From Candidatus Doudnabacteria bacterium (GTDB lineage Bacteria > Patescibacteriota > Doudnabacteria > UBA920 > O2-02-FULL-48-8), in assembly GCA_016182875.1 (NCBI GenBank), contig JACPFQ010000004.1:99203-163202 (forward strand): a stretch of 64,000 nucleotides of DNA, written 5' to 3'. Within the stretch, counting starts at the first letter, position 1; every line of letters starts with the position of its first letter. Under the pieces are notes generated by a model. The model was not told the DNA's origin, ran no database searches, and worked only from the letters and a program-made list of their open reading frames with translations. This document shows, in pieces, positions 18,263 through 33,320 of this stretch. Position numbers and translations under genes: made by a program.

Positions 18263-19597
18263 ATGACCAACCAACAGCTTTGGCAGGCAATTCTTGGCAA
18301 CTTGGAACTGACCCTCAGCAAGGCAAATTTTACGACCTGGTTTAAAAACACTTCGATCATCGAAAAAAGTGAGAATTCCATTGTAGTCGGAGTACCCAAT
18401 GGCTTCACCAAGGAGTGGCTGCAGAACAAATACCATCAGGAGATTCTGAAAGCCCTCAAAACAATTTCGCCGGAAATCAAGGAAATCAAATACCAAATAG
18501 TCAGCCCGACTTATACTCAACCGCAGATTGCGAAGGAAGTGGTCCGGCCGCAGCAAGTCAAAAGAGCTGATAATCAGAACTTGAACCCAAAATATACTTT
18601 TACCAGCTTCATTGTCGGGGCCAACAACCAATTGGCGCACGCGGCCAGCCTGGCGGTAAGCAAAAAACCGGGCCAGGTTTATAATCCGCTCTTCATCTAC
18701 GGCGGGGTGGGATTGGGAAAAACTCACCTCATGCAGGCCGTGGGCAGCGAAGTCCTCAAAAAATCCGCGAATGTCAAGGTTTTATATGTGACGTCCGAAA
18801 AATTTACCAATGAATTTGTCTCCGCAGTTTCTGCGGGAAAAACCGAGTCATTTAAATCTTTATACCGCAGCGTCGACGTTCTGCTGGTCGATGATATTCA
18901 ATTCTTGGCGGGAAGAGAAGGCACCCAGGAAGAATTTTTCCATACCTTCAATGCCCTGCATCAAAACAACAAGCAGGTCGTAATGACTTCCGACCGGCTG
19001 CCCAAAGAAATTCCTGCGATCGAAGAGCGCTTGGTTTCGCGCTTTGAATGGGGAATGATTGCCGACATTCAAGCGCCCGATTTGGAAACCCGCCTGGCGA
19101 TTCTTAAGACCAAAGCCCGGGAAAAAAATTACAACATCGAACCGGAGATTTTAACTTACATTGCGGAAACCATCCAAAGCAATATCAGGGAATTGGAAGG
19201 GGCCTTAAACCGGCTTATGGTCTACTGCCAGCTCAACAACACCCGCCCGACCATTGACCAGGTGAAGAATATCCTCGTCAACGTCATAACTCCCCCAAAA
19301 AGGCGTGGCGTCTCTGCCAAAAAAATCATTGAAGTCGTGGCTGACTTTTATAACGTTTCAATTGAGGACCTTCTCAAACAATCGAGAAAAAAAGAATACG
19401 TCAATCCGCGGCAAATCGCCATGTTCATCATCCGCCGGGAGCTAGAAACTTCCCTCCCATCGATCGGCGAGTTCTTTGGGGGCCGGGACCACACCACTGT
19501 AATCCATGCCATCGACAAAATCGATCGCCAAATCAAAGAACGCAACGGCTTAAAACAAGAGATAGATTTGATTAAGGATAGACTGTATATGCCGTGA
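18263..19597 (+). CDS. dnaA: Chromosomal replication initiator DnaA
   Basis: AAA+ Walker A (GGVGLGKTHL), DnaA signature, C-terminal DNA-binding domain. Confidence 0.95.
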   Translation: MTNQQLWQAILGNLELTLSKANFTTWFKNTSIIEKSENSIVVGVPNGFTKEWLQNKYHQEILKALKTISPEIKEIKYQIVSPTYTQPQIAKEVVRPQQVKRADNQNLNPKYTFTSFIVGANNQLAHAASLAVSKKPGQVYNPLFIYGGVGLGKTHLMQAVGSEVLKKSANVKVLYVTSEKFTNEFVSAVSAGKTESFKSLYRSVDVLLVDDIQFLAGREGTQEEFFHTFNALHQNNKQVVMTSDRLPKEIPAIEERLVSRFEWGMIADIQAPDLETRLAILKTKAREKNYNIEPEILTYIAETIQSNIRELEGALNRLMVYCQLNNTRPTIDQVKNILVNVITPPKRRGVSAKKIIEVVADFYNVSIEDLLKQSRKKEYVNPRQIAMFIIRRELETSLPSIGEFFGGRDHTTVIHAIDKIDRQIKERNGLKQEIDLIKDRLYMP

Positions 19598-19767
19598 GGG
19601 TAAACTGTTAATTAAAAATTACGGATTACGGGTTACGGATTTTTATACCGACGTTCCCCACAAGCTAAAAACAACAAGTTAAATAATCTAATTCGATAAT
19701 CCGCAATCCGTAATTAATAATTCCAACAAATACACAAACCCACAGTTTCTATTACCACTATTATTTT
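19598..19767. other. dnaA-dnaN intergenic region with inverted TTACGGAT-type repeats flanking an AT-rich core; alternative oriC candidate
   Basis: ttacggattacgggttacggatt ... aatccgcaatccgtaat (imperfect inverted repeats); TTCCCCACA and AACCCACAG as weak DnaA-box-like 9-mers. Confidence 0.3.
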
Positions 19768-20874
19768 TTGAAGACCATTATGAAAGTAGTATGCACCAAA
19801 GATAACTTAAGAAGAGGCCTGTTTGCCGTAAGCCGGGTGGTCGGGAGCGGAAACCCGTTGCAGGTTTTGAATAACATTTTGGTCAAAACCGACCAGGGGC
19901 GGGTCAAGCTATCTTCCACCAATCTTGAAATTGGAGTCAACACCTGGATTGGCGGAAAGATAGAAGAGGAGGGGGCGCTGACCGTGCCGGCCAGGCTGAT
20001 GAATGAATATATAAATAACCTGCCGGCTGACAAGGTTCTCATTACGGTTAAGGACACGGTTCTAAGCTTGGAGTCAGAGAATTATCACACGAATATCAAG
20101 GGGCTTTCGTCAGAAGATTTCCCCCTAATTCCACAGGTACTGGACGAGCCATACACCAAAGTTGACTCCGATGAGCTTAAATCAGCGCTTGCTGAAACAG
20201 TTTGGGCTGCGGCCAACAACGAGACCCAACCCGAGATTTCGGGGATATTTGTCGCTTTCGAGGATAACAAATTAAGGATTGCCGCCACTGACCGGTACCG
20301 CCTGGCAGAAAGAGTCGTGCCGCTTGCTGCTGCGGTCGCCACAAATAAAGAAGCTATAATTCCATCAAGGACAATCGGCGAGCTTTATAAAATACTTAGC
20401 CTGGGCAAGGGTGGGGTAGAAATTTACTTTTCGGAATCCCAGGTCTTGTTTAAGTTCGACGAGACCGAAATCATCTCACGCCTCATAGACGGCAACTATC
20501 CTGACTACCGCCAGATTATTCCGAAGACCTTTAAGACCGAAGCCGAGGTCGGGAAGTCAGAACTGCTTCACGCGCTCAAGGCAGCAAGCTTGTTTGCTCC
20601 TGACTCAAATAACGTCCAGGTGGAAGCGGGCAAGACCGAGCTGACAGTCGCCGCTTCGTCCGCCGCTGCCGGCGAAAACGTCACCAAGGTCGCAGCAGCA
20701 GTCAAGGGAGATAGCAACAGCGCAGTGTTCAACTTTCGATATCTCATCGATTGCCTCAACGCCTTGCCGGAAGAAAAAGTAATTCTTAAGATGATTAATG
20801 ACGCTTCGCCGGCCATGCTGCTGCCAGCCGGCCGCGATAATTATTTATACATCGTAATGCCAATTAAGCTGTAA
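19768..20874 (+). CDS. dnaN: DNA polymerase III beta sliding clamp
   Basis: MKVVCTKDNL... three-domain clamp architecture; 368 aa. Confidence 0.9.
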   Translation: MKTIMKVVCTKDNLRRGLFAVSRVVGSGNPLQVLNNILVKTDQGRVKLSSTNLEIGVNTWIGGKIEEEGALTVPARLMNEYINNLPADKVLITVKDTVLSLESENYHTNIKGLSSEDFPLIPQVLDEPYTKVDSDELKSALAETVWAAANNETQPEISGIFVAFEDNKLRIAATDRYRLAERVVPLAAAVATNKEAIIPSRTIGELYKILSLGKGGVEIYFSESQVLFKFDETEIISRLIDGNYPDYRQIIPKTFKTEAEVGKSELLHALKAASLFAPDSNNVQVEAGKTELTVAASSAAAGENVTKVAAAVKGDSNSAVFNFRYLIDCLNALPEEKVILKMINDASPAMLLPAGRDNYLYIVMPIKL

Positions 20875-22013
20875 TGAAGCTGGAAAGCATTGCTTTAGAA
20901 AATTTCCGCAACTACTCAAAAATCGAGGTCAATATAAATTCCGACCTCGTTTTGATTTTGGGGGCGAACGCCTCCGGCAAGACCAATTTTTTGGAAAGCA
21001 TTTATTTTTTGTCCCGTTTGAAGTCGTTCCGCAGCCCAGACCAGTTTCTTGTTAAAATCGGAGAGAACTATTTTAAGCTGGCGGCAAATGTCATTGCGAG
21101 GCCGGACTTGATCCGGCCGAAGCAATCTCATGGAGAGATCGCCGCGTCGTCCCGCCAAGGCGGGACTCCTCGCGATGACCAAGAAAAAGACCTAGAAGTT
21201 ATAGTCCAAGTCACCCCTATTTTAAAGCGCAGCTTTAAACTTAACGGCCAGAAAATCAAGCGCGGGCTTTGGCAAAGTTTTGCCGCGGTGCTGTTCATTC
21301 CCACTGACCTGAATTTGTTTTCTTTGGGTCCGTTATTGAGGCGAAGATACCTAGATGACACTTTATCCCAAGTCAGCAAAAATTATGCTTTTGATTTAGT
21401 TTCTTTGGACCATGTACTTGGTCAGCGCAAGGCCTTGCTGGAAAAAATAGCACTTCAGCAAGCCCAGCGTGAGGAGCTAAGCTTCTGGAACGAGCAGCTG
21501 ATTACTTTGACTTTAAGCATCGGCCAGGAGCGGAAATGTTTTTTGGATTTTTTAAACGAGCGGTTGAACTCGGTCTATTCGCAGTTGTCCGGTTTCAAAA
21601 ATAAATTCGCGGTTGAATACAAAACTGATGCTCAGGGCGACCTGCATAAACTGATCAAAGAGCATGAGGGGGCGGAGGTTAGGTCCGGCCAAAACCTCAT
21701 AGGACCGCATCGGGAAGACTTTGTCCTTAACAAAGACGGATTGTTGAATGTTTATAATTCATCCCGCGGCGAGCTCCGCTCCCAAATCTTGGCGATTAAG
21801 TTTTTACAAGCTGAGTACCTGAACAGCCACGACTTCAAGCCAATTATCTTTTTGGACGATGTTTTTTCCGAGCTCGACGAGGAGCGCCGGATTAAATTAC
21901 TGGAGAATCTTTCTGGCCACCAGATTTTTATCACGACCACCGAAGAGCACCACTTACCGGAAATAAAACAAGCGCAAAAGTTAAAAGTCGAGAATGGACA
22001 GTTCCTCCCCTGA
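20874..22013 (+). CDS. recF: DNA replication/repair protein RecF
   Basis: Walker A (LGANASGKTNFLESI) and a signature/Walker B region near the C-terminus. Confidence 0.9.
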   Translation: MKLESIALENFRNYSKIEVNINSDLVLILGANASGKTNFLESIYFLSRLKSFRSPDQFLVKIGENYFKLAANVIARPDLIRPKQSHGEIAASSRQGGTPRDDQEKDLEVIVQVTPILKRSFKLNGQKIKRGLWQSFAAVLFIPTDLNLFSLGPLLRRRYLDDTLSQVSKNYAFDLVSLDHVLGQRKALLEKIALQQAQREELSFWNEQLITLTLSIGQERKCFLDFLNERLNSVYSQLSGFKNKFAVEYKTDAQGDLHKLIKEHEGAEVRSGQNLIGPHREDFVLNKDGLLNVYNSSRGELRSQILAIKFLQAEYLNSHDFKPIIFLDDVFSELDEERRIKLLENLSGHQIFITTTEEHHLPEIKQAQKLKVENGQFLP

Positions 22014-22046
22014 TACCCCCTCTAACTCCCCCTTCCAGGGGGAGAA
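22013..22046 (+). terminator. recF terminator hairpin that is also a minimal copy of the palindromic-element terminal repeats (TAACTCCCCC-ttcca-GGGGGAGaaTTA)
   Basis: CCCCC-TTCCA-GGGGG stem-loop followed by aattatttttct; its ends match those of the elements inside uvrB and valS. Confidence 0.55.
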
Positions 22047-22141
22047 TTATTTTTCTAAAAATTAGACAAATCAAAAGAGCGAGGCCGACCCATACGGGGT
22101 CAAACCTCGCCCTCTCGTCCGGTCGAATGACCGGAACGTGT

Positions 22142-23884
22142 CTATCTGTCTTCCTCCTCCCTTTCGTTATCGAGCTCCATGTGAAGGCCTTGTGAGACCC
22201 TCAACATGAATTCGCGGCGCTCGTTCGGCTTGCCGCCGAAGAACTTAAACCTTCTCTCGACCTTCTTGGGTTCGTGGGCCACCACGTGATCCGCGGTCAT
22301 CATATTGATGACCTTCTGTTCCGCCTCAAGCCCGTCGACATGCTGAGCGAGCGCGGTTACCGCACTGCGGGCTTCACCCGTGACCCGCTCGACGGCAGCG
22401 ATGCGGTCCATCATGGACTGCCGCAGCTCGGCACCGTACTTGGTAACGACTTCCGTGGCCTGCGCCCGCGCCGCTGTAGTGACCCGCGCCTCGAGCCCGT
22501 CGAGCCCACTGTACTGGATCCTCAGGGCAGCGAGCTGCTGGCCCTGCGCCTGAACTTGCCGACGGAGCGCGGTGATGTCAGCGCTTGGCTGCGGCTGGGT
22601 GACCTGCTTCTGCACCGCCTCGATGCGCTGCTGCAGTCGGTAACCCATGGCGTTGGTCTGGTTATCCATGACTGTCACGTATTTGTCGGAGACGATTGTT
22701 CGGCCGTCCTGGCAGGTGACACCGACCTTGGTAGCTACCTTCCGAGCGTTGACCGGGTCGATGTTGACCGTGCCCACCACTTGCGTGGGTGAAGCGCTCG
22801 TCACGGTCATGCTGACACCGCGCGTGATATTCACCGCCGTCGGGTTTCCGGTGCAGAGGTTGCTGCCCGACAGGGTCAGCATCTGCGGTACCGGGTGGTC
22901 CACGACGATGGTGTCCGGTGATATCGAGGTGATCTGTCCGGCGGCCTGTGCGAACGCTGCGTTCGCGTAGCCGCCAAACAGCAGCGCCAGGATGATCACG
23001 GGAACCACAGGAGCCGGAGCCGCGGGAACGGCGGGCTGAGCCGAGACTTCCGCCGAGTTCGGTCCCTCGCCAGACCCGTAGTACGCGCTCACGACGTAGA
23101 AGTATTGGGTGCCGTTCGTGAGCCCCGCTGCGTCGGTGTAGGTCGTCGCATTGGCCGTGCCGACGATTGTGTACGGGCCGCCGGCAGTCGTGGCGCGTTT
23201 GACCGTGTAGAACACAGCGCCTGTGATTGCCGCCCAGTTGAGGACGACCTGAGCGTTCCCTGGCGTTGCCGCAAGCCCTGTGGGAGCAGCAGGTCTGTGT
23301 GCTTCCTGAGCGCGCCGACGGACTTCGGCGTCGCGGTCCTCCGGTTGTGCAGGACCGCGCCGCCGTAAGAACCAGACGGCAATGATGAGCACGAGCAGTC
23401 CCACACCAGCCCAGACGAACGGGGCCAAGTTGATGGCCGCTGGCGGACAGCCGGTGGTCAGAACGGGCGTTCCCTGCGGGGTGTCCTTGCACTGGTCGAC
23501 GTTGTCCGCGACCTTGTCGCCGTCCGAGTCAGTGGCGGCCGGCGGCGGTTCCTGCGCCTTGTCTGCCGCCTGCTGCTGTTCTTGCGAACAGCCGTTGCGG
23601 AAGATGGGCACGCCTTGCGGGGTGTTGGCGCACTGGTCGTCGCTGTTCGGGATGCCGTCGCGGTCTGCATCCGCCACCGGGGTTGCCGGTTGCGGAGTTG
23701 GCGTTGGCGCGGGAGCCGCGGGCTGGCCCTGAGTGGCCGGTGGTGCCTGCGGCGCGGGCGCGGGTTGCGGAGTCGGCGGTTGCGCAGTCGCAGCCTCGGG
23801 CTCCTGTGGCACGACCGGAATCTGCGCGAACGCGCTGGCGCTGAGCGCCAGCATTGCGAGCACGAAAACGAACATTCTTATCAT
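22142..23884 (-). CDS. High-GC secreted/membrane surface protein. Order: signal peptide, Pro-rich linker, two TSP3-like Ca-binding repeats, TM helix, FN3-like domain, second signal-peptide-like segment, Cys-containing beta domain, long coiled coil
   Basis: I prefer ATG at 23884 (MIRMFVFVLAMLALSASAFAQ) with SD AGGAGGG 3 nt upstream over the track start at 24106. Repeats DADRDGIPNSDDQC and DSDGDKVADNVDQC. FN3-like segment NAQVVLNWAAITGAVFYTVKR...GTQYFYVVSAYY. Confidence 0.55.
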   Translation of the reverse strand: MIRMFVFVLAMLALSASAFAQIPVVPQEPEAATAQPPTPQPAPAPQAPPATQGQPAAPAPTPTPQPATPVADADRDGIPNSDDQCANTPQGVPIFRNGCSQEQQQAADKAQEPPPAATDSDGDKVADNVDQCKDTPQGTPVLTTGCPPAAINLAPFVWAGVGLLVLIIAVWFLRRRGPAQPEDRDAEVRRRAQEAHRPAAPTGLAATPGNAQVVLNWAAITGAVFYTVKRATTAGGPYTIVGTANATTYTDAAGLTNGTQYFYVVSAYYGSGEGPNSAEVSAQPAVPAAPAPVVPVIILALLFGGYANAAFAQAAGQITSISPDTIVVDHPVPQMLTLSGSNLCTGNPTAVNITRGVSMTVTSASPTQVVGTVNIDPVNARKVATKVGVTCQDGRTIVSDKYVTVMDNQTNAMGYRLQQRIEAVQKQVTQPQPSADITALRRQVQAQGQQLAALRIQYSGLDGLEARVTTAARAQATEVVTKYGAELRQSMMDRIAAVERVTGEARSAVTALAQHVDGLEAEQKVINMMTADHVVAHEPKKVERRFKFFGGKPNERREFMLRVSQGLHMELDNEREEEDR

Positions 23885-24133
23885 CACACCCTCCTGTGAG
23901 ATGTGAAAGTTGGCCTCGCGGCCAGTTGAAACGAAACGCTCTGACGGCGTTTGGCCGCGAGCCAGTGCGTGAACTCTAGTAGCACTGCTTTTATGTCTGA
24001 AATTTATCCTGATGTAAATCAGGATCAGGCACAAAAGTAATCCTACTAAAATGGGGAGGAGCGAGGCAGTCTTGGTAGACCAGCCTCGCCCCACTCCTTC
24101 TTGCATCTCAGCGCTTGCGCGCTGAGTTTCCTC

Positions 24134-25960
24134 CTATCTGTTGTCTTCCTCCGGTCCGCCGTTGGGTGGCGCACCGTTCCGGGTCTCGCACGGGGTGGCC
24201 AGACCGAGCGCCTCGGCGACTGCTTGCGACGCCGTCTTGCGCTGGTTGGGCTGTCCGCGTCTGAGGAACCTGCCGCCAACGCGGTCAGGCTCGTCGTACA
24301 CGACATGCTGCATCGCAATGCAGGTGCCGGTCTCGACGTTGCCCATCCTGCCTTGCAGGTTGTTGACGTACCCGGCCTGGGTTGTCAGGGTCTTCGCGAG
24401 CTCCCCGGCGTAGCTAAGCGTCTGGTCAGCAACGCTGCGCGTCGCCTTGCCTGCCTCTTCGGCTGCGGCAATGCGCGACACCATGCGCTCCTCGAGGGTC
24501 TGGAGGTCGCTGAGGACATCCGCACGCCGCGCGAAGGGAGCCCATGATGCCTGGAGAAGCTCGCCAGCTTTCGCGTGCGTCGGCTGGGCGGAGTAGTCCA
24601 GGTAGCGCTTGTTCCCCTCTTCCCGCCCGTAGACCTGCTGGAACTTCTCCTGCAGGTAGTGTGAGAAACGCGGGTCGCGTCCGAACCGCTCGGCCGTGAT
24701 GTCGAGCACGGTCGCCGATTCCTGGCTGATGATGCGGACGACCGAGTTGCCCGACGCGATGTCGCCTGCGTCGGTGTTCACCACGAACGCCGTGGTCCCC
24801 GGCATGGCAGTCGCGTCTGCCTGGAGCTTGCTGATGATGGTGTTGCCCTTCATCACAATCTCCGTAGTGGTGGCCACACCGGTGCCGGCGTTGATGCCCG
24901 TGACCTTGCCGAGCTTGGCGTTGCGCGGGCAGGCCATGGTGATGGTCACGTCCGCGGCGTTGCCGCCCTGCACCAGGTATCCGTTCTGCACACTGACAGA
25001 ACGGACGGTGCACGTCGGAACTGCAGGGGCCGCGGGAGCGGCGGGCTGACCCTGAGCAGGCACCTGTGCGGCTGCCGGCTGCGGCGCTGCCGGCGGGGCC
25101 GGGGCAGCCGCACCGGGAGCGGCCGGCGCCGTGGTGACGGGTGGGGTCGGCTGCTGGGCGAGGGCGCTGTTGGCGCCGAGCCCGAGCAGGATGGCGATGA
25201 CGATGCTTCTCATGACAGTTCCTCCGAGTTTCCGGTTGATGTTGATGCCGAACCCGATGACGAGTCCGACGAGAATCACGAACCCGACGGCCCCGCCGAT
25301 GACGATGTACCGCAGCTTCTGATCGGTCCGCCGCGTGTCCTGGCGGGCGAGTAGCGCGTTGTTGGACGCCTTGATCGAGTACTGCCGGTCCATCCACGAG
25401 TTGTCCGCCGACGAGGCGATTGCCTTCTCGATTCGTCCGATGAGCGAGGCTTCGACGTCGTTCAGGCGGTGCTCGACGTCAGTAGGCGACGCGTTGTACG
25501 GCGCGACCTTGGCGATGTAGGTTCGGGTCGCTTCGAGAGGCGGTTGCGACGAGTCGGTGACCTTGACCGTGACCGTGTAGTCATCGCCTGGGATTTCTTC
25601 GCCACGCGATGAATACAGGTAGGCCTGACTCTTGCTCGGCAACCAGACATCGAGAATGTCTCCGTTCTTGATCTCGTCGACGATCTCCCACTTGTAGGGC
25701 TCGGTCCCGCCGCGCGCCGCCAGGTTGAACTCCTTGTAGCGGCCGGATTCGAACGCGATGGTCGTGGGTTCGACGATTGTCAACGAACCGGTTGCTGTCG
25801 CGGGCGGCTGCTGGGTCGAACCCGTCGCGGGCGGCGCCTGCTGAGTCGAAGTACCGGGCTGGCGAATCGTCGCGGTCTGCGCGCCGAGCGGCACCAGGTT
25901 CAAGAGGAACCCGAGCAGCAAAATCGCTGCGCAGATGAGGTACTGAGTCAACTTCTTCAT
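24134..25960 (-). CDS. High-GC surface protein, paralogous architecture to 22142..23884. Order: signal peptide, Thr/Pro-rich linker, Ig-like domain, TM helix, second signal peptide (with internal RBS + ATG at 25213), Pro-rich linker, Cys-containing beta domain, coiled coil
   Basis: SD AAGGGAGAG before ATG at 25960. GGTEPYKWEIV...DDYTVTVKVTD resembles bacterial putative-Ig domains. Internal GGAGGA-6nt-ATG (M250, MRSIVIAILLGLGANSALAQQ) is in frame. Confidence 0.55.
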   Translation of the reverse strand: MKKLTQYLICAAILLLGFLLNLVPLGAQTATIRQPGTSTQQAPPATGSTQQPPATATGSLTIVEPTTIAFESGRYKEFNLAARGGTEPYKWEIVDEIKNGDILDVWLPSKSQAYLYSSRGEEIPGDDYTVTVKVTDSSQPPLEATRTYIAKVAPYNASPTDVEHRLNDVEASLIGRIEKAIASSADNSWMDRQYSIKASNNALLARQDTRRTDQKLRYIVIGGAVGFVILVGLVIGFGININRKLGGTVMRSIVIAILLGLGANSALAQQPTPPVTTAPAAPGAAAPAPPAAPQPAAAQVPAQGQPAAPAAPAVPTCTVRSVSVQNGYLVQGGNAADVTITMACPRNAKLGKVTGINAGTGVATTTEIVMKGNTIISKLQADATAMPGTTAFVVNTDAGDIASGNSVVRIISQESATVLDITAERFGRDPRFSHYLQEKFQQVYGREEGNKRYLDYSAQPTHAKAGELLQASWAPFARRADVLSDLQTLEERMVSRIAAAEEAGKATRSVADQTLSYAGELAKTLTTQAGYVNNLQGRMGNVETGTCIAMQHVVYDEPDRVGGRFLRRGQPNQRKTASQAVAEALGLATPCETRNGAPPNGGPEEDNR

Positions 25961-25989
25961 GACTTGCTCTCCCTTTTGCTAACGAGCGG

Positions 25990-26226
25990 TTATGGTTCAA
26001 CGACAGTCACGTTGACTGCCATCAGTACTGCGTCGAGGTCGAACGTGGCCTGCTTGCCGCGGATTCGTCCGCGCGGCACGTGGTCGTCCCGAATCTCGAA
26101 CTTGTCTCCGACGTGGTCGGGGCCCGTGAGGACTCTCACCTTCCAGACCATCCTGCTAGGGTTGGTTGGGGAAGGATTGAAGCCCACGACATAGCCGGTA
26201 TACGCCGGTGACCCTCTGATCGTCAA
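25990..26226 (-). CDS. Small hypothetical protein (78 aa, TTG start) leading the high-GC minus-strand operon
   Basis: SD-like AGAGAGG upstream of TTG; same high G+C; 30 nt upstream of the next gene. Confidence 0.35.
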   Translation of the reverse strand: MTIRGSPAYTGYVVGFNPSPTNPSRMVWKVRVLTGPDHVGDKFEIRDDHVPRGRIRGKQATFDLDAVLMAVNVTVVEP

Positions 26227-26551
26227 AACGCACCTCTCTTTCTGAACAAATGCTGGTTGCGCCGCCGATACTTCCTAATTTTTAAGGCTTAAGAAACACG
26301 GGCGGCGCAACCAAAACTGAAACAAAATACACTATGGGATTTTAAAGAACGAACCGAATATGATAGCAAATTTTGGCACTTTTGTCAACCCCGACGCGCA
26401 AGCGGTCGGGGCTCCGACCGTAGCGTCGGAGTGCTCATGGTATTTTAGGCTAATTTTAGCCAAAAGCTGGCGCTAGGCTTGATTTTTTGCTTTAATACTA
26501 GTACAATTTAGCGTTCGTAAACCGCACTTTTAATTTTCCCAGGAGGGAGAA

Positions 26552-28138
26552 ATGATGTTTGCACAGATTTTTGTCGTCGTGGCGATTCTGGCTTCGGCCG
26601 GCGTCGCTTCCGCGCAAACGGTCTTTACTCCTTCCCTAAGAATTCCTGGGATTGGAGTAGAGCGAAAGAACATCAGCGGCGCGGTCCTGGACGATCGCAT
26701 CCGCAAGATAATTCTTTCACGGCAGTTCTGGCTCTTGCGGCAGGAATGCGCCAAGGATGCACCCAAGCGGCTGTTCGACAACTATTGGCGAATCATTGAG
26801 CCGGTGGCGGCGATTGAGCCCAGGCTTGATCCGTACATCATCGGAGCGCTGATTACTCTCGAAAGCTGCGTCGTTGAGAAAGCCGACAACGGGTTTGGTC
26901 CAGTTGGACTTTGCCAGATCGATATCGCGTCGGGCAAGGACCTCGGCATGAAGGTTCATGTTGAGCGGCGGTTCCGGTTGGTGCCGAGAAAAAATAGCCG
27001 CGGACAGATCCTCAAGGACAGGCGTGGAAGAGCGCTCGCTCGGCGCGTGTACTACTGGTATACCTATCCTGACGACGAGCGATGGGATCCAGCGAAGTGC
27101 ATCATGGGCATGCGCAATCGTCTGCTGCGCAGCTACAACGCCTACGGTTCGATGGATGCAACGCTCGCCGAGTACCACATGGGGCCAACGCGCATGAATC
27201 GTCTACTCTCGCTCTATACGGGTCAAAACGTGGTCAGGAATCCGACCAAAAAGGGCGAGGTCGCGGCCAAAGAAGTCATCGCGAAGCGGCAATTGCGCTA
27301 CGCGAAGATCTTCTTCGACAACACTCCGAGCTGGCGGCGCAGCGTCTGGCTTTACCTCAAGCGACTGCCTGACGACTCGGAAACGTACTACTTCAAAGAA
27401 GCCATGTGGGAAGGACTGCTTCGGTTTTACCATGACCCGCGGTACGGCGGCGGACCCGCGGCGTACGAACGACTGCAAGCCCGATACAGCGGGGCCTCTA
27501 GCCCAATGTGGTCGTTCTTCACGGAGGAGGAGCGTCAGCAGTATATGATCATGACCGTTGAGGCACTGGCCAAGGCGTACGATCCGCCCAGGCCTGGCGA
27601 GGGCGCGCGGCTCGTCCCGTTGCCTCAAGACCCGGCGTTCTTTGGGTTCAGGCCGAGACTTGAGGGGTCATCGCCGATTGGGGCGAAAGCGCTGAAACCG
27701 CAAGACAGACCATACTACATCGGGTCTGAAGCTTCAACGCTCGGCGCGCTCGTCTACATTTCTTACGAGCTTAGGCGGCTGACGGGGGCTGGGTTTCGGA
27801 TTTTGGAGACCAACTCGCTCGTCCGAGACAACGATTATCAGTTGCGTTTAAGAACTGATAACGTGAATGCGCGCACCAGCCTGCCCACGCACGTGATGGC
27901 CAAGGCCTTCGATCTTCCCTACAACTGGATGAGTCCGCAACTGCGGGAGAACTTGGAGTTCCTCCTGCAGGACCTGGCGTATGACGGCAAGCTGACATTC
28001 AGCCCCGAGTCAGGGAGCCAGCATACCGACCATGTCGTTCCTCATCCCGACGCGGAAGAGTTCTTCGACAAGGTCTACGCTGGAGCCGAACGTCAGCTGG
28101 CGGCGCGAAATGCCGCTCGTCGTGCAAACACCCAATAA
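26552..28138 (+). CDS. Secreted putative peptidoglycan hydrolase: signal peptide + lytic-transglycosylase (SLT)-like domain + C-terminal domain with an H-x6-D ... HxxH metal-site-like pattern (peptidase-like)
   Basis: Signal peptide MMFAQIFVVVAILASAGVASAQ. ITLESCVV...GFGPVGLCQI matches the SLT ES...GLMQ pattern. C-terminal SLPTHVMAKAFD and HTDHVVPH. SD AGGAGGGAG before the ATG. Confidence 0.5.
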   Translation: MMFAQIFVVVAILASAGVASAQTVFTPSLRIPGIGVERKNISGAVLDDRIRKIILSRQFWLLRQECAKDAPKRLFDNYWRIIEPVAAIEPRLDPYIIGALITLESCVVEKADNGFGPVGLCQIDIASGKDLGMKVHVERRFRLVPRKNSRGQILKDRRGRALARRVYYWYTYPDDERWDPAKCIMGMRNRLLRSYNAYGSMDATLAEYHMGPTRMNRLLSLYTGQNVVRNPTKKGEVAAKEVIAKRQLRYAKIFFDNTPSWRRSVWLYLKRLPDDSETYYFKEAMWEGLLRFYHDPRYGGGPAAYERLQARYSGASSPMWSFFTEEERQQYMIMTVEALAKAYDPPRPGEGARLVPLPQDPAFFGFRPRLEGSSPIGAKALKPQDRPYYIGSEASTLGALVYISYELRRLTGAGFRILETNSLVRDNDYQLRLRTDNVNARTSLPTHVMAKAFDLPYNWMSPQLRENLEFLLQDLAYDGKLTFSPESGSQHTDHVVPHPDAEEFFDKVYAGAERQLAARNAARRANTQ

Positions 28139-28162
28139 AAAAACCGCCCCGGAGGAGGCGGT
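28133..28162 (-). terminator. Rho-independent terminator for the minus-strand membrane-protein gene (hairpin CCGCC-ccggagga-GGCGG followed by a T-run on the minus strand)
   Basis: aaaaaaaaccgccccggaggaggcgg on the plus strand. Confidence 0.55.
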
Positions 28163-28215
28163 GAGTGCGGGGCCCGGGAATTGAAACGTTTAATGTTTCT
28201 GCCCGGGTCCTGTTT

Positions 28216-28791
28216 TTATTCCCTCAGCCCGGGTGCTTTGGCTTCGGGCGGGAGCTTGTCGTACAAATCAGAAATCAATTTGGAGACCGCGGTCGGGTTT
28301 GGGATGCGCGAGAACACGAACCGCTCGACTTCGCCGGCGGTTTGGATGTGGACATTGCCGTAATTTAAAAACGTCGGGAAAAAACCCTTAACCTCGGCCG
28401 TGACATCCTGCATGCGCGAGAGATAAACTTCGGAAATTTTGTGATGAATCAGGGAGTGCTGGTCAATGTCGACCACGCGCTCGTTGGTGACAATCTGGAC
28501 GTTGAGATAGTAAATCACCCAAAGCATGAGCAGGCCCAGGATCAGAAACAGCAGGTAGATGCTTTTGAGCAAAGCGTAAATTTCTTGGTAGGGAGAGACA
28601 AAGATAAAGGATGCGTAGTGGGGAAGGTATTGGTCAGCCAAAACCAGAATGGCCACGAACAGTAGCCAAAGTGCGAATCTGAGGGCAAATACAAACCAGT
28701 GCTGGCGGATGACGAGGTAAACTTCCTCGTTTTCCTGCTGGCCGGGGAACAGATTTTGCTTGAAGTGTTGTTTGAGGGTTGGCCAGTACAT
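28216..28791 (-). CDS. Hypothetical membrane protein (two TM helices plus a cytoplasmic domain)
   Basis: I prefer the start at M14 (MYWPTLKQ), where the repeated leader cassette ends exactly at the ATG; the track start is 28830. Confidence 0.5.
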   Translation of the reverse strand: MYWPTLKQHFKQNLFPGQQENEEVYLVIRQHWFVFALRFALWLLFVAILVLADQYLPHYASFIFVSPYQEIYALLKSIYLLFLILGLLMLWVIYYLNVQIVTNERVVDIDQHSLIHHKISEVYLSRMQDVTAEVKGFFPTFLNYGNVHIQTAGEVERFVFSRIPNPTAVSKLISDLYDKLPPEAKAPGLRE

Positions 28792-28796
28792 GATAG

Positions 28797-28868
28797 AATT
28801 TTGAATGATTAATTTTGAATTTTGATTCAAATTCGAATTTCAGAAATTAGAATATTCATTCGAAATTC
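28797..28868 (-). repeat. Copy 1 of a ~75-90-bp AT-rich promoter/leader cassette ending at the ATG of the downstream gene
   Basis: aattttgaatgattaattttgaattttgattcaaattcgaatttcagaaattagaatattcattcgaaatt; near-identical to copies 2 and 3. Confidence 0.6.
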
Positions 28869-28903
28869 CCGCCGGAGGCGAGGCTCGCCCAAGGCGGCAA
28901 AAC

Positions 28904-29128
28904 TCAAAATTTAATGCTGTTCAAATCGGTTTGGGCGGCGGCGAATAAGCTTGCGGCAATGATGATGTAAAGCAAAGACACGCTCGCGGAAACCAGTTTG
29001 GAGCGTCCGAAGCGGTTGAGGGCGTAGAGCGCCAGAAAGCTATAAAGCGCAAACCCGGCCATGAGGACATAGAAAACCAGCGCGATTATTGTGTGAATGA
29101 GATTTGTTGGTTCGTAGACAGTGAGCAT
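28904..29128 (-). CDS. Small hypothetical membrane protein (74 aa, 2 TM)
   Basis: The ATG coincides with the end of cassette copy 2; two hydrophobic helices. Confidence 0.5.
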   Translation of the reverse strand: MLTVYEPTNLIHTIIALVFYVLMAGFALYSFLALYALNRFGRSKLVSASVSLLYIIIAASLFAAAQTDLNSIKF

Positions 29129-29219
29129 GAATTTTGAATGATTAATTTTGAATTTTGATTCAAATTCGAATTTCAGAAATTAGAATATTCATTCGAAATT
29201 CTAAAATCGAAATTCAAAA
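29129..29219 (-). repeat. Copy 2 of the AT-rich promoter/leader cassette (between the ruvB stop and the small membrane-protein gene)
   Basis: gaattttgaatgattaattttgaattttgattcaaattcgaatttcagaaattagaatattcattcgaaattctaaaatcgaaatt... Confidence 0.6.
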
Positions 29220-30257
29220 TTATAATAAAGTCTCTCCTTTGGTTTCTTTTGCCGTAACTTTCAAATGCTCATAGGCCGCTGGCGTGGCTACGCGTCCTTT
29301 GGGTGTGCGGGCGATGAAGCCGAGCCTTAAGAGGTAAGGCTCGTAAACATCTTCCAAGGTTTCGGCTTCTTCCGAGGTCGCGGCGGCCAAGGATGTAATC
29401 CCCACCGGCCCGCCGCCGAATTTTTCGATAATGGTCAGAAGCATGCGCCGGTCGTTGGCGTCCAGTCCCAGGCTGTCGACCTCCAGCATGTCCAAAGCTT
29501 CCTGCGCCACCGAATCGATGATTCGCCCGGCGGCTTTGACCTGGGCGTAGTCGCGCACGCGCTTGAGCAGTCGATTGGCGATTCTGGGAGTTCTCCTCGC
29601 CCTGCGGGCGATTTCTTTCCGCCCGCCTTCGTTTATCTTGATTTTCAAAATATTGGCCGCCCGCTCAATGATTTTTTCGATTTCATCTTCTTCGTAATAG
29701 TCAAGCCGCAGAGTGGAGCCAAACCGGTCGCGAAGCGGAGAAGAAATAAGTCCGATCCGGGTCGTGGCGCCGATCAATGTAAATTTGGGAAGGTCAAGAC
29801 GCAGCGCTTTTGCTCCGGCGCCTTTTCCCAGGACAATATCCAAGCAGTAGTCCTCCATAGCCGGGTAAAGAATTTCTTCGACGACCTTGTTTAGGCGGTG
29901 GACCTCGTCGATGAACAAAACGTCATTGGGTTCAAGGCTGGTTAGGAGAGAGGCGAGATCCCCGGTTTTTTCTATGGCCGGGCCAGAAGTGATTTTGATG
30001 GCCACCCCGATTTCGCGGGCGATGATGTGGGCGAGCGTGGTCTTGCCCAGTCCCGGCGGCCCGTAGAGCAGAATATGCTCCAGCGTTTCCTTTCTTTTTT
30101 TTGCGGCATCAATGAAGATTTTGAGGTTGTCCTTGATTTTGGTTTGCCCGACGTACTCATTCAAGCTTTGCGGCCTCAGCGTTGCCTCAAAAAACCCTTC
30201 ATCTTTGGTTTGTTCTGGGTTGATGATGTCTATTTCTTCAGTGTTGGTGTTAATCAT
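29220..30257 (-). CDS. ruvB: Holliday junction branch-migration helicase RuvB
   Basis: AAA+ Walker [19 protein letters not shown]; RuvB C-terminal winged helix. Confidence 0.95.
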
Positions 30258-30365: not shown

Positions 30366-31791
30366 AATTCTCAAGAAACTTGATTCCATGATACACTCCC
30401 CAGCCGGAAGCACCCGCCGGCATATGCGGCCTGCTTTTTACGGTCCACGCCGTGCCCGCGATGTCGAAGTGAATCCAGGGAGTCTTGTCCACGAAGCTTA
30501 ACAGAAACAGGCTGGCCGTGATTGCCCCGCCCAGGCCCTTGTCGCCGGTGTTTTTGAGGTCCGCAATTTGGCTTTTAAGCTGGTCCTGGTATTCGTTCGG
30601 CAGGGGCATGAGCCACAATTTCTCTCCGGTCGCTTTCGCAGCTTTTGTCAGCTGCTGGTTATATTTTTCGCTGTTTCCGAAAGCCCCGGTCAGCTCGTCG
30701 CCCAAAGCGATGATGATGGCGCCGGTTAAGGTCGCGTAGTCGAGGATAAGCTTTGGCTGATAATGTTTCTTGGCGTAAGTAATGGCATCGGCCAAAATCA
30801 GCCGTCCTTCGGCGTCGGTGTTGATGATCTCTACGGTTTTGCCTGACATGGAGGTTAGGATATCGCCCGGCTTGGTCGCTCTTCCCGAAAGCAAATTTTC
30901 CGCGGACGGGATTAATCCCACCAGAGAAGTTTTAAGCTTGAGTTGGGCGGCAGCCTCGATTATTCCAAGGACCGTGGCGCCTCCGCACATATCGTACTTC
31001 ATTTCCTCCATTCGCTCCGCCGGCTTGATGGATATGCCGCCGCTGTCAAAAGTCAGCCCCTTGCCAATGAGCACAATCGGGTTTTGGTTCGAGGATTTTT
31101 TAGGAAGATACTCAATCACGATGAATTTAGGCGGTTCGTCCGAGCCGCGCGACACTCCAAGCAGCAGGCCCATGTTCTCTTTCTTGATATCTTTGGCGTC
31201 CAAGACTTTGAGTTTGAGCCGGTATTTGTCCGCAATCAGTTTGGCATGCTGCGCCAGATGAGCAGGCGTTGCGATGTTCGCCGGATGGTTGGCCAAATCG
31301 CGCGCTTTGTTTGCAGCCGATGCAACCATTGAGCCTCGCGCTATCGCTTTTTCCATGGCCTTGGTAATTCGGGGAACGGCCAAATAGATGTTTTCGAGAT
31401 TTATTTTTTCCTTTTCCTGTTTGTAGTAGTTAAATGAGTAGGAAGCAAAAACCGCGGCAAAGGAAATAATCTCAACGGCATCCGGGCTTTGAAGCTCCCG
31501 CAGGTCCCTAAGCAGGATTTGCAGCGAGGATGTCTTAAATTTTTTGGAAGCAGAAACAGCGGTCTGAATGGCCGTTCTTAAGCTTGCTGGGTTGAAGTTT
31601 TTATTTTCTCCCAAGCCCAAAAGCATCATTCGTCCCAGATTCTCTGAGTAAACCACGTGGGTTTCATTGGCCTTGCCTGTAAAATCTTGCAAGCCTAAAA
31701 CTTTAAACTCCTCGGCCGGCTGTTTTTTGGCAAACAAGGGAATGATTGTCAGGTCAGATTTATTGAGTTGTTTGGTCAGGCGGAGTTTCAT
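30361..31791 (-). CDS. pepA: Leucyl aminopeptidase (peptidase M17)
   Basis: NTDAEGRL signature and the conserved M17 catalytic region. Confidence 0.9.
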   Translation of the reverse strand: MKLRLTKQLNKSDLTIIPLFAKKQPAEEFKVLGLQDFTGKANETHVVYSENLGRMMLLGLGENKNFNPASLRTAIQTAVSASKKFKTSSLQILLRDLRELQSPDAVEIISFAAVFASYSFNYYKQEKEKINLENIYLAVPRITKAMEKAIARGSMVASAANKARDLANHPANIATPAHLAQHAKLIADKYRLKLKVLDAKDIKKENMGLLLGVSRGSDEPPKFIVIEYLPKKSSNQNPIVLIGKGLTFDSGGISIKPAERMEEMKYDMCGGATVLGIIEAAAQLKLKTSLVGLIPSAENLLSGRATKPGDILTSMSGKTVEIINTDAEGRLILADAITYAKKHYQPKLILDYATLTGAIIIALGDELTGAFGNSEKYNQQLTKAAKATGEKLWLMPLPNEYQDQLKSQIADLKNTGDKGLGGAITASLFLLSFVDKTPWIHFDIAGTAWTVKSRPHMPAGASGWGVYHGIKFLENL

Positions 31792-32914
31792 TTACGTTTT
31801 GATTACTGGTGGGATTGGGGATGTTGGATTCGACTGTCGAGATTTTGGGAAACAGGGCCGGCGGGAGGTAAGTGCTTCGGAAGGTTTGTTTTTTCTCCTC
31901 GCCGGGGTAGGCCACCGTCCTGGTCCAGACGGCTTTCATGGACCCGTCTTCCTTTTTATCATATTGGTAGGGGCCGTCGAAGGTGACACTGCGTTCATCT
32001 TTCGTGCCATAGAAATCAAAGTATAACTTATTGCCGTCAATTCTCGTGGCAATCAATAAGTGGCTTGCCAAATCGTTGGTGAATTTAAAGTCTGTGGCTC
32101 CCGGGTAAATAGTGGCGTCCGTGCCTTGCGGGGCATAGTAGCGGACAGCAAAAGAATGATTGCGCCGCTCGGTTATGGGGAGGCCCGCATTCATGGCCGC
32201 CCGGAAGGTCGTGGAAGAAACCTGGCATAATCCTCCCCCAAATTCCGGCACCAGGCCGATTTTTTTGATTACCAGTTCGGGCAAAAAGCCGTTTTGTTCA
32301 TCAACATCTCCCAGGAACTTATTAAAGGAAAATTCTTCACCGGGCTTAAACATAATTCCGTTGAATTTTGCAGAACCGACTTTGATGTTGTGAATCCGGT
32401 TTTTGGGTGAGCCCGAGAAGTCCGACTCGCCCTCTGCCACCAATTCGTTGATGCCTAAATCATTGGTTTCCGAAAGCCTTACGGGAGGAAAGGCAATGAG
32501 CACGGGCAGCTGCTCGTCATCAGCAGACAAATCAGTCAGGGAACGGTAAAGAGCGAAGACATCCAGGATTTGACCGTTTTGCCCCGGGTCAAATTCCAAG
32601 ACTTTTTCACCATTCCAAATAAGCTTGGCGCTTCTGGCAGATTGGTTGATTTGACTGCTTAAGCTTTCGACTTCACCCAAAGTTTGGGAATCAAGTAAAC
32701 TCGTCCTTGGGGGTTCTAAGTTAAGCAGGGTCTGTTTAACGATGCTTTCGAGATTAGGCGCTCTGACGCCCAAGTCGGCCGCTGTTCCAGCGGTTGCCGG
32801 ATTAAATTCATAGGTTTTATTTTCAAAATTAAAAGTCTTGGCCTCTATCCGTTTAGAGCAGGCTAGAGACAAAAAAATGAAGAGGAACAGGCTAATTTTT
32901 GTATAGCGTGACAT
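31760..32914 (-). CDS. VanW-family protein
   Basis: GGGLCQVSSTTFRAA VanW motif; I prefer the start at M9 (MSRYTKISLFLFIFLSLAC, lipoprotein-like) over the track start at 32938. Confidence 0.75.
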   Translation of the reverse strand: MSRYTKISLFLFIFLSLACSKRIEAKTFNFENKTYEFNPATAGTAADLGVRAPNLESIVKQTLLNLEPPRTSLLDSQTLGEVESLSSQINQSARSAKLIWNGEKVLEFDPGQNGQILDVFALYRSLTDLSADDEQLPVLIAFPPVRLSETNDLGINELVAEGESDFSGSPKNRIHNIKVGSAKFNGIMFKPGEEFSFNKFLGDVDEQNGFLPELVIKKIGLVPEFGGGLCQVSSTTFRAAMNAGLPITERRNHSFAVRYYAPQGTDATIYPGATDFKFTNDLASHLLIATRIDGNKLYFDFYGTKDERSVTFDGPYQYDKKEDGSMKAVWTRTVAYPGEEKKQTFRSTYLPPALFPKISTVESNIPNPTSNQNVNETPPDQTTQ

Positions 32915-33320
32915 TTCGGCTGCCGGGTTGGCTGGCAAAAGATATCTTAATAATCAGCTCGCAGTATTTTTTCAGGCTTGGAAATTTATCGACCCATTCG
33001 ATTATCACGAAGTCGGATTTTTGCTTGAGGGTGGGAATGATCCCCAGCGGTTCCAGGTCAGAAGATTTGTCAAGACGATAAAGGTCGATATGATGGAGCT
33101 GCCTTTTGCCTGCGCTGTGGCTATCGATTATAGTAAAAGTGGGGCTTTTTATTTTTTTGACGCCCAAGCCCCGGGCGAAGTTTTTTACAAAGGTGGTTTT
33201 GCCAGCTCCCAAAGGCCCGATTAATCCAATCACGGCACCGCTGTGTGCGTACTTTTTGGCCAGCCTCGCCGCCAACCGTTTGAATTCCGATAAGGAAAGC
33301 CTAGGCAGCTTTTGAACCAT
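32892..33320 (-). CDS. tsaE: tRNA threonylcarbamoyladenosine biosynthesis protein TsaE
   Basis: P-loop LIGPLGAGKTTFVK, 142 aa. Confidence 0.85.
   Translation of the reverse strand: MVQKLPRLSLSEFKRLAARLAKKYAHSGAVIGLIGPLGAGKTTFVKNFARGLGVKKIKSPTFTIIDSHSAGKRQLHHIDLYRLDKSSDLEPLGIIPTLKQKSDFVIIEWVDKFPSLKKYCELIIKISFASQPGSRNVTLYKN

Follow-up and report, generated by a model that had tools for sequence, protein, structure and literature searches.

Two-domain proteins that pair a glycan-strand cutter with a peptide or amide cutter are described from bacterial secretion systems. TraG/PrgK, which are VirB1-like components of T4SS, carry an SLT and a CHAP domain in a single polypeptide (PMC12102498), and the T6SS effectors Tse4 and Tae17 combine a lytic transglycosylase (LT) with an endopeptidase and an amidase, respectively (PMC11796386). 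In this class the second domain is of the CHAP/NlpC or amidase type, the domains are arranged as beads on linkers, and delivery depends on a machine. Two further groups are relevant to the individual domains: family-1 LTs (MltE, MltC and Slt70 of E. coli, MltD and MltF of P. aeruginosa) and proteins of the LAS or MEROPS M15 type (VanX, VanY/LdcB, MepA, Ply500, the Streptomyces albus DD-peptidase and Shh-N).

CPR/Patescibacteria have tiny genomes with few recognisable wall-remodelling enzymes, and both their division and the interface of episymbionts with host walls are poorly understood. The gene described here lies in a stretch of 64,000 nucleotides from a Candidatus Doudnabacteria bacterium (the window), and its product is very probably a secreted two-domain peptidoglycan hydrolase candidate that consists of an SLT and a LAS-fold domain.

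Like TraG/PrgK, Tse4 and Tae17, the protein appears to carry a glycan-strand cutter and a peptide or amide cutter on one polypeptide. In contrast to that class, the second domain has the LAS fold, the model packs the two domains against each other, the protein carries a predicted Sec leader, and no secretion-machine cluster surrounds the gene. From the family-1 LTs it differs by a sequence identity of only 13-20%, a 42-residue basic beta-hairpin insertion, the family-specific invariant residues D175, R177 and Y279, the absence of a lipobox or LysM modules and, according to the structure model, the rigid fusion of its SLT domain to a peptidase-type domain. No solved protein of the LAS and M15 type gives a significant sequence match, and the C-terminal domain probably corresponds, unlike theirs, to a Pfam family without described function (DUF5715). 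The literature searched contains no description of an architecture like the one modelled here, in which a glycan cutter is rigidly paired with a Hedgehog-fold zinc domain. Table 1 lists the features of the locus.

Table 1. Features of the hydrolase locus and of the divergent gene unit, in window coordinates.
Feature	Position	Strand	Evidence or remark
654-aa predicted surface protein	22142..24106	-	weak TSP3-type repeat and Fn3 matches
608-aa predicted surface protein	24134..25960	-	signal peptide, TM segment, second signal-like segment
78-aa ORF, first in divergent unit	25990..26226	-	no known family
Promoter-like site TTGACA-17-(TG)TATCAT, divergent unit	26360..26388	-	11/12 match
Promoter-like site TTGATT-17-TACAAT, hydrolase side	26479..26507	+	consensus match only
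Shine-Dalgarno AGGAGG	26541..26546	+	5 nt ahead of hydrolase ATG
Hydrolase gene	26552..28138	+	528 aa plus stop; ORF list and NCBI match
Predicted Sec signal peptide, residues 1-21	26552..26614	+	hydrophobic core, ASA-Q; inferred from sequence and homologue leaders
Family-specific N-terminal segment, residues 25-60	26624..26731	+	motif R-I-x-G-x-G-x-(D/E)-R
Lysozyme-like SLT (family-1-type LT) domain, residues ~62-225	26735..27226	+	profile, conservation, model
Glu104 codon, predicted catalytic acid/base	26861..26863	+	kept 55/55
Basic beta-hairpin insertion in SLT domain, residues 133-174	26948..27073	+	13 K/R, 3 D/E
Helical middle region joining catalytic domains, residues 226-375	27227..27676	+	Y279 invariant; model
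Probable DUF5715 domain, Hedgehog/DD-peptidase (LAS, M15-like) fold, residues 376-512	27677..28087	+	profile, model, motifs
H447...D454 codons (HVMAKAFD), first two predicted zinc ligands	27890..27913	+	each 54/55
His494 codon, predicted third zinc ligand	28031..28033	+	51/55
GC-rich hairpin between convergent hydrolase and bPH_2 genes	28143..28162	.	terminator search

Gene, family and homologues

The ORF is a real gene. A protein search shows its product to be identical to the NCBI entry 'hypothetical protein HYV13_02295' of a Candidatus Doudnabacteria bacterium, which derives from a MAG. Judged from sequence, the architecture is that of an uncharacterised family, whose members carry no annotation beyond 'hypothetical' or 'SLT domain-containing'. 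With a limit of E<1e-30 they fall into 81 or more clusters at 50% identity, and the family has roughly 650 representatives. A word-indexed protein search returned only 2 homologues, even when seeded with alignments of 3 and of 55 sequences; an exhaustive HMM search gave the wider homologue set, and residue conservation is counted on 55 full-length homologues. Most members with a name come from Patescibacteria, and a distant branch lies in Actinomycetota; a contig profile search gave a single extra locus, and the taxonomic breadth thus rests on few source names. PADLOC and NCBIfam gave no match for the hydrolase.

Domain architecture

The predicted Sec-like N-terminus agrees with the signal peptide of the original prediction, and the leaders of the homologues are of the typical MKKLL... 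type. In the family-specific segment that follows, G35 is kept in 47/55 and R38 in 45/55 of the full-length homologues.

The lytic-transglycosylase pattern first read from the sequence, E-S...G-L-x-Q, holds in the family; this pattern and the C-domain motifs go beyond a chance match. Pfam SLT (PF01464) matches residues 89-150 of the hydrolase with 24.7 bits (cut-off 21.3) and is matched at E<=0.01 by 54 of the 55 homologues. The catalytic-Glu candidate E104 is invariant and stands, in the structure model, at the end of helix 94-105; S105 (E104-S105 encoded at 26861-26866) is kept in 54/55. The motif G119-L-C-Q122 (26906-26917) retains G119 in all homologues and Q122 in 53, and the motif AEYHMG (residues 206-211) retains Y208 in 46, H209, at the Asn position, in 53 and G211 in 52. 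S105, Q122, H209 and G211 are therefore each kept in at least 94% of homologues, and D175 and R177 are invariant among the 55. The motifs G-L-M-Q and A-Y-N-x-G are signatures of family 1 in the classification of Blackburn and Clarke. Structure model and fold search both match the domain to the lysozyme-like fold. The insertion, with strands 137-145 and 163-171, is found in the homologues but is variable.

The C-terminal domain had been proposed to resemble zinc peptidases of the D-Ala-D-Ala/L-Ala-D-Glu type, and profiles, residues and modelled fold all point to a LAS/M15-like domain. Its motifs are S422-L-V-R425...Q430, H447-x-x-(G/A)-x-A-x-D454, E486 and H494; R425 is kept in 44/55 and E486 in 45/55 full-length homologues. 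Of the two patterns originally noted, H-x6-D stands as H447 and D454 (Table 1), while HTDHVVPH stands in part: within HTDHVVPHP (residues 491-499), H494 alone is conserved among the histidines of the pattern, H491 being without conservation and position 498 being His in 14/55. The Pfam model DUF5715 (PF18979, cut-off 26.8 bits) scores the hydrolase at 20.9 bits and the isolated domain at 24.5 bits, both below the cut-off, and scores a 54% identical homologue (P0002) above it (29.5 bits, 34.2 for the isolated domain); 26 of the 55 homologues match at E<=0.01. Peptidase_M15_3 is matched directly by 3/55 homologues (best E 5e-4), and the hydrolase itself significantly matches neither the Pfam models for M15 nor any M15 enzyme of solved structure. 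PDB sequence searches with the full protein and with the C-domain profile gave no match, so that the relation to LAS peptidases is drawn from the fold and from matches to motifs and Pfam models. When the C-domain profile is compared by hhalign with sequences of VanX and Shh-N, only the H-x6-D motif aligns, with H447 and D454 set on the zinc-ligand motif of both proteins at a score that is not significant alone (P 0.04-0.2).

In model and fold matches the domain shares with VanX, MepA and Shh-N a fold of helices and a central antiparallel sheet. The zinc ligands of this class, an H-x(3-6)-D pair and a more distant His, would be supplied by H447-x6-D454 and H494. The general base that adjoins the last His in the M15 subfamilies (ExxH, HxH or DxxH) is missing, and positions 491 and 492 are variable among the 55 homologues. 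In its stead the conserved E486 lies 8 residues ahead of H494, which is closer to the Hedgehog arrangement. Hedgehog has a similar Glu-His spacing, and its peptidase activity is debated. The literature search returned no paper on DUF5715 and no biochemical data on any family member.

The AF2 model calculated from the 55-sequence alignment (pLDDT 95.2, pTM 0.90) replaced an earlier one from 3 sequences (pLDDT 43.5). Both domains and the middle region are modelled as one compact body, and the lysozyme-like and the peptidase fold are both matched. The two outcomes named beforehand as refuting the original prediction, a lack of similarity to these folds and a catalytic Glu absent from homologues, are thus both contradicted. 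The middle region packs the domains into a rigid body, which could let the enzyme cleave glycan and peptide at a single place in the wall.

Genomic context

The hydrolase locus lies between recF and ruvB, with dnaA and dnaN also among the neighbours, and synteny extends to a second Doudnabacteria genome. In three other contigs a homologue adjoins groEL. An rRNA operon suspected upstream of a further homologue (L012) was rejected. The window also encodes a class A PBP, a FemAB-family protein and a Mur ligase; with these peptidoglycan synthesis genes, a substrate in the cell's own wall exists.

As originally described, the gene is divergently paired with genes for surface proteins. The spacer (26227-26551, 325 bp) is AT-rich and has promoter-like sites on both strands, and in this lineage the hydrolase may be co-regulated with the neighbouring surface proteins through this shared region. 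The 78-aa ORF is kept at the same place in the second Doudnabacteria genome (47% over 66 aa). The 608-aa protein further contains a Pro/Ala-rich stretch, a beta domain and a coiled coil; the 654-aa protein has internal hydrophobic segments and a coiled-coil C-terminus. Divergent pairing of the hydrolase with a secreted or surface protein occurs in three lineages, namely here and in two others. Surface-protein neighbours are absent beside the homologue in four other genomic contexts, and the suggested dedication to surface-protein export is therefore not supported as a general rule. BLAST and MAFFT showed no cross-genome homology of the neighbouring surface proteins; only their general architecture recurs.

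The further suggestion of a partnership with an envelope-spanning machine is not supported by the surroundings: no T4SS, T3SS or T6SS genes occur within about 15 kb of the hydrolase, and the nearest machine-like gene is a lone PilB-type ATPase, 6.5 kb away behind the unrelated genes for bPH_2, ruvB, an aminopeptidase-like ORF (named by eye), a VanW-like protein and unknown products.

The region 22,000-28,140 has a GC content of 0.58-0.66, compared to about 0.47-0.50 nearby. GC3 of the hydrolase gene is raised in every genome examined, and that of the neighbouring surface-protein genes is higher still. Between the two Doudnabacteria the hydrolases are 38% identical, whereas the flanking genes reach 54-90% (DnaA, DnaN and RuvB 77-90%); the other Doudnabacteria hydrolase is 52% identical to a copy from a different context, and the similarities are hence incongruent. 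The 'foreign island' of the original prediction is ambiguous and only partly borne out: the locus is shared in order with the second genome, yet the hydrolase there has the low identity given above. Raised GC3 and incongruent similarities would be compatible with cassette exchange.

Proposed function and alternatives

We infer the enzymatic activity and the biological role of the hydrolase, as well as the bond that its peptidase would cut. Taken as a whole, we lean towards a Sec-exported bifunctional peptidoglycan hydrolase made by the Doudnabacteria (CPR/Patescibacteria) cell and acting on the wall of that cell. Glu104 would serve as the single acid/base that cuts the MurNAc-beta-1,4-GlcNAc bond and yields 1,6-anhydroMurNAc. 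In a LAS-type zinc peptidase domain the metal ligands would be His447, Asp454 and His494, while Arg425 and Glu486 are likely to serve in substrate binding and as general base; the bond cleaved by this domain would lie in a stem peptide or a cross-link. The predicted second, peptidase-type active site gives DUF5715 a fold and a testable function. The favoured role is that of a housekeeping 'space-making' autolysin, for which the existing wall substrate and the location among housekeeping genes speak. This role is challenged by the fast divergence and the raised GC3, both of which would sooner be expected in genes that are exchanged or take part in host interaction.

Ranked second, though rather unlikely, is the use of the same enzyme at a host interface, where a CPR episymbiont would breach or remodel the wall of a host bacterium and deploy the hydrolase alongside the rapidly evolving surface proteins encoded next to it. 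The low identity of the hydrolases relative to DnaA, DnaN and RuvB, the incongruent similarities, the elevated GC3 and the divergent pairing in three lineages are consistent with such a role, as is the family branch in Actinomycetota, a phylum that includes known CPR hosts. To our knowledge no host is known for Doudnabacteria, and the gene stands alone among housekeeping genes in four other contexts. Antibacterial effectors that combine an LT with a peptidase or amidase do exist (Tse4 and Tae17, PMC11796386). The hydrolase gene is accompanied neither by a delivery system nor by neighbours that resemble immunity or toxin genes.

It is quite unlikely that only the LT is catalytic and that the Hedgehog-like domain is a metal-binding, non-proteolytic module, which would bind stem peptides or a partner protein and so target or regulate the N-terminal domain. 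The absent canonical base beside the last His, the failure of the domain profile to find a PDB peptidase by sequence, and the loss of R425 in 11/55 and of E486 in 10/55 homologues argue in this direction. Against it stand the H-x6-D...H triad, kept in 51-54/55, the M15-like motifs S-x-x-R...Q and H-x-x-G-x-A-x-D, and the three members that match Peptidase_M15_3; a catalytic site would be expected to show such conservation, but a zinc site with a structural role could account for it as well.

A more far-reaching extension of the host-interface role, which we consider improbable, combines hydrolase, 78-aa protein and surface proteins into an exchangeable cassette. CPR bacteria would exchange the unit by lateral transfer, always at set positions in the chromosome such as the one between recF and ruvB, its persistently GC3-rich codons would mark a separate history, possibly from high-GC Actinomycetota, and the LT-plus-Hedgehog-like enzyme would open the host wall at the attachment site. 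If true, the enzyme would help to set the host range of ultra-small episymbionts, and a bacterial Hedgehog-like DUF would obtain its first function. Raised GC3 and non-vertical similarity are hints that genes are exchanged at a surface locus, a point that would weigh more if confirmed.

The original suggestion of an endolysin remnant, that is, a lysis gene (endolysin or virion-associated lysin) from a decayed prophage or foreign island, is largely refuted and highly improbable: the GC content of the island, the frequency of SLT domains in phage tail and internal proteins and a weak PHROGs endolysin match (E 7e-5, within a 1946-position profile) are set against the lack of any match in 50,697 phage records (INPHARED, tblastn) or relative in IMG/VR, weak BFVD fold matches (best E 5e-4, query TM-score <=0.24; the named ones being lytic-transglycosylase or lysin proteins), the absence of integrase, terminase, capsid and tail genes or a flanking tRNA near the hydrolase, the homologue that lies between the same neighbours at the corresponding locus of the other Doudnabacteria genome, and the spread of the family over Patescibacteria chromosomes beside groEL and similar genes.

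The practical value is modest; the protein is a candidate for expression and zymography and possibly a lytic enzyme.

Rfam gave no match in 21,800-29,300. The GC-rich hairpin downstream of the hydrolase gene was scored as a minus-strand terminator; its plus-strand copy comes after an A-run.

Domain architecture of the hydrolase

The product of the ORF, identical to GenBank 'hypothetical protein HYV13_02295 [Candidatus Doudnabacteria bacterium]', had been proposed from the sequence alone to be a secreted enzyme combining an SLT-like and a peptidase-like domain. This identity places the window in a genome of the CPR/Patescibacteria. The original prediction located the ORF exactly, and an AGGAGG sequence precedes its ATG start by 5 bases. 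Direct translation recovers the quoted motifs: E104-S105, G119-L-C-Q122 and A-E-Y-H-M-G (206-211) in the N-terminal domain, H447-VMAKAF-D454 and HTDHVVPHP (491-499) in the C-terminal domain. The N-terminus (MMFAQIFVVVAILASAGVASA, followed by Q) resembles a Sec signal peptide, and hence the protein would be exported; a lipobox cysteine is absent from it, and homologues carry leaders of the classic MKKLL... type. Behind the leader comes a segment with the conserved pattern R-I-x-G-x-G-x-(D/E)-R, then the hairpin-bearing SLT domain; residues 226-375 form a helical middle region, which leads into the C-terminal domain. In an AlphaFold2 model based on an alignment of 55 full-length homologues (mean pLDDT 95.2, pTM 0.90), all parts form a single compact body; an earlier model from three sequences only (pLDDT 43.5) was useless. 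All conservation counts refer to the 55-sequence alignment.

Features discussed in the text
Feature	Sequence	Position	Strand	Size
Hydrolase ORF	window	26552..28138	+	528 codons
78-aa ORF	window	25990-26226	-	78 aa
Surface protein	window	24134-25960	-	608 aa
Surface protein	window	22142-24106	-	654 aa
tRNA-Cys(GCA), tRNA-Leu(TAA)	window	469-634		
Class A PBP	window	12469-15030		
VanW-like	window	31760-32938		
PilB/T2SSE-type ATPase	window	34596-36236	+	
FemAB-family	window	45409-46356		
Mur ligase	window	47062-48360		
GC-rich island	window	22,000-28,140		
Compared flanks of island	window	18263-22013, 28216-30257		
78-aa ORF homologue	L005	7601-7798	-	
Surface-protein modules	L002	2739-3680, 3734-4672	-	
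Fused hydrolase ORF	L010	2415-3788		
Stretch upstream of hydrolase	L012	2900-6900		4 kb

The N-terminal domain matches Pfam SLT with 24.7 bits, above the curated cut-off of 21.3, and 54 of the 55 homologues reach E<=0.01 with this profile. E104, G119, D175, R177 and Y279 are invariant (55/55), with S105 (54), Q122 (53), H209 (53) and G211 (52) close behind. The listed Foldseek matches against the PDB are SLT-type lytic transglycosylases of family 1 (MltE, MltC, Slt70, MltD, MltF). The SLT profile, the invariant E104 as predicted catalytic Glu and the lysozyme-like fold matches thus bear out the proposed transglycosylase domain, and all features tested for SLT membership are present. Compared to the family-1 enzymes, the domain has a 42-residue beta-hairpin insertion (residues 133-174), which is strongly basic (13 K/R versus 3 D/E), and an invariant D175-x-R177 directly after it.

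The C-terminal domain has, in the model, the LAS or 'Hedgehog/DD-peptidase' fold, with the highest match scores for the Sonic hedgehog N-domain (9.6) and Drosophila Hedgehog (8.9), followed by MepA (7.6), VanX and LdcB (both 6.8), VanXYc (6.7), the Ply500 L-Ala-D-Glu peptidase (6.5), VanYB (5.8) and a Streptomyces zinc DD-peptidase (5.2). The predicted metal ligands are conserved: H447 and D454 (54/55 each), as the H-x6-D pattern had indicated, and H494 (51/55), the only residue of the proposed HTDHVVPH motif that matters. The M15 signatures S-x-H-x-x-G-x-A-x-D and S-G-Y-R-S-x-x-x-Q are mirrored by the consensus P-x-H-x-x-G-x-A-F-D around the metal motif and S-L-V-R...Q upstream of it. No general base is present 2-3 residues ahead of the last His, where it normally lies; E486 (45/55), 8 residues upstream of H494, is the conserved acidic residue, an arrangement closer to Hedgehog. 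Pfam DUF5715, mentioned nowhere in the literature searched, is matched below its cut-off in the hydrolase (20.9 bits with the whole protein, 24.5 with the domain alone) and above it in a 54%-identical homologue (29.5 and 34.2 bits, respectively); it reaches E<=0.01 in 26 of the 55 homologues, and three of the 55 also match Peptidase_M15_3. No PDB sequence was found with the domain profile, and hhalign against sequences of VanX and Shh aligned the metal motif alone, non-significantly. Since fold and metal ligands agree, the adjacent general base is missing and a significant sequence link to solved LAS members is lacking, we file the domain as 'LAS-fold, DUF5715', rather than under a named M15 subfamily.

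Family membership and known systems

A word-indexed protein search returned only two relatives (54% and 34% identity); an exhaustive profile search of cluster representatives returned 651 (E<=1e-3), 372 (E<=1e-10) and 81 (E<=1e-30). Many members are about 500 aa long and span the whole query, and a separate group of about 300 aa matches the C-terminal domain only. Source-named members, labelled 'transglycosylase SLT domain-containing' or 'hypothetical', stem from several Doudnabacteria MAGs and one 'Patescibacteria group bacterium'; a distant branch is annotated as Thermoleophilaceae (Actinomycetota). The hydrolase belongs to a mostly CPR family, as yet uncharacterised, of putative secreted hydrolases that combine an SLT with a Hedgehog-fold domain. 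On one metagenome contig (L010), the C-terminal two thirds of a hydrolase of the type found in a second Doudnabacteria genome (L005) are joined in-frame to an unrelated N-terminus, followed by bPH_2 and ruvB as in L005; this fusion is probably an assembly chimera.

The architecture resembles a fusion of a family-1 lytic transglycosylase with a LAS/M15-type peptidase. The nearest functional precedents are bifunctional, for example TraG/PrgK of type IV secretion systems (SLT and CHAP; PMC12102498) and the T6SS effectors Tse4 (LT and endopeptidase) and Tae17 (LT and amidase; PMC11796386). In these enzymes the second domain is a different one, and they are tied to secretion machines.

Genomic neighbourhood

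On one side of the hydrolase gene is a divergent minus-strand unit, consisting of the 78-aa ORF and the genes of the 608-aa and 654-aa predicted surface proteins, and on the other side are convergent bPH_2 and ruvB genes; further upstream are yidC, a jag-like gene (KH and R3H domains), dnaA, dnaN and recF. Both strands of the 325-bp spacer carry promoter-like sequences, one with an 11/12 match. In L005 (MFEL01000018) the order is the same, namely dnaA, dnaN, recF, the surface/hydrolase block, bPH_2 and ruvB, the block comprising a secreted coiled-coil protein (-), a homologue of the 78-aa ORF and the hydrolase (+). The 78-aa ORF matches no family in Pfam or PADLOC. It heads its unit in the same position in both genomes (E 3e-14, with 47% identity over 66 aa) and is probably a genuine small gene, transcribed together with the surface-protein genes.

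The pairing with surface proteins is real and recurs beyond L005: in a more distant lineage (L001/L002) two minus-strand genes are likewise divergent from the hydrolase, one encoding an Fn3 and TM protein, the other a protein with signal peptide, Pro-rich stretch, beta domain and coiled coil. It is not a family-wide property, since four other contexts lack it: on three contigs the hydrolase is convergent with groEL and large surface-protein genes are absent, and in the fourth context its neighbours are genes of translation and housekeeping.

In the middle of both surface proteins there is a TM segment, after which a second stretch resembles a signal peptide, and in L002 the matching modules are encoded by two genes; the ORFs in the window may have arisen by gene fusion or contain internal starts. 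The true start of the 654-aa ORF may be further downstream, because a better signal peptide (MIRMFVFVLAMLALSASAFA) follows its first 76 residues. Upstream of the L012 hydrolase, a locally GC-richer stretch holds small ORFs only (53-135 aa), several with a single TM; an rRNA operon is ruled out there, with no Rfam match.

Role of the hydrolase

The most economical mechanism would be a secreted enzyme that cuts peptidoglycan twice, at the glycan strand and at a peptide bond. The two-domain assignment is a sound and testable gain in annotation; of the original prediction the enzyme identity stands, while the ideas on origin and dedicated role are wrong or unproven. The organism makes its own peptidoglycan, as class A PBP, VanW-like, FemAB-family and Mur ligase genes occur in the window, the FemAB-family protein suggesting interpeptide bridges; these scattered genes are relevant to the choice of bond that the peptidase domain might cleave. 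The sole machine-like gene in the surroundings encodes a PilB-type ATPase with an MshEN domain (E 2.5e-122), 6.5 kb away with unrelated genes between; it follows a 389-aa ORF without Pfam family and may serve a type IV pilus system.

We lean towards an autolysin acting on the cell's own wall, possibly co-regulated with the adjacent surface proteins. An enzyme directed against a host is possible but rather unlikely, and a non-catalytic C-terminal domain appears improbable. A phage origin, suggested earlier as an 'endolysin remnant', is scarcely credible and is rejected: no relative turned up by tblastn among 50,697 phage records or in an IMG/VR scan, the BFVD fold search gave weak matches only (query TM-score at most 0.24, best E 5e-4), of which those with a name are lytic-transglycosylase or lysin proteins, and the locus is in chromosomal synteny with L005. 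Around the locus, no phage genes, defence-system matches or RNA families were found.

Composition and divergence of the island

The island had been called foreign, and it is indeed GC-rich (0.58-0.66 versus about 0.47-0.50 nearby); the gene order shared with L005 speaks against its having been inserted recently. It directly follows dnaA-dnaN-recF, presumably near the replication origin. Identity between window and L005 is 90% for DnaA, 82% for RuvB, 77% for DnaN, 72% for bPH_2 and 54% for RecF, but 38% for the hydrolase, and the L005 hydrolase is closer to a groEL-linked homologue (52%) than to that of the window. The content of the island also differs, with three genes as compared to two in L005; its position is fixed and the locus variable. 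The back-to-back tRNA-Cys and tRNA-Leu genes are far from it and therefore provide no integration site.

The GC3 of the hydrolase gene exceeds that of most or all flanking genes in all six contexts examined: 0.70 versus 0.57-0.65 in the window, 0.75 versus 0.59-0.71 in L005, 0.71 versus 0.49-0.58 in L002, 0.72 versus 0.47-0.48 in L006, 0.68 versus 0.42 in L012 and 0.62 versus 0.44 in L009. This holds despite a mutual identity of just 33-54% among the six hydrolases; in the adjoining surface-protein genes GC3 rises to 0.75-0.89. A cassette replaced at a fixed site would fit this pattern, and fast evolution with a gene-specific compositional bias would fit it equally. Beyond this pattern of composition and phylogeny, nothing in the findings is surprising.
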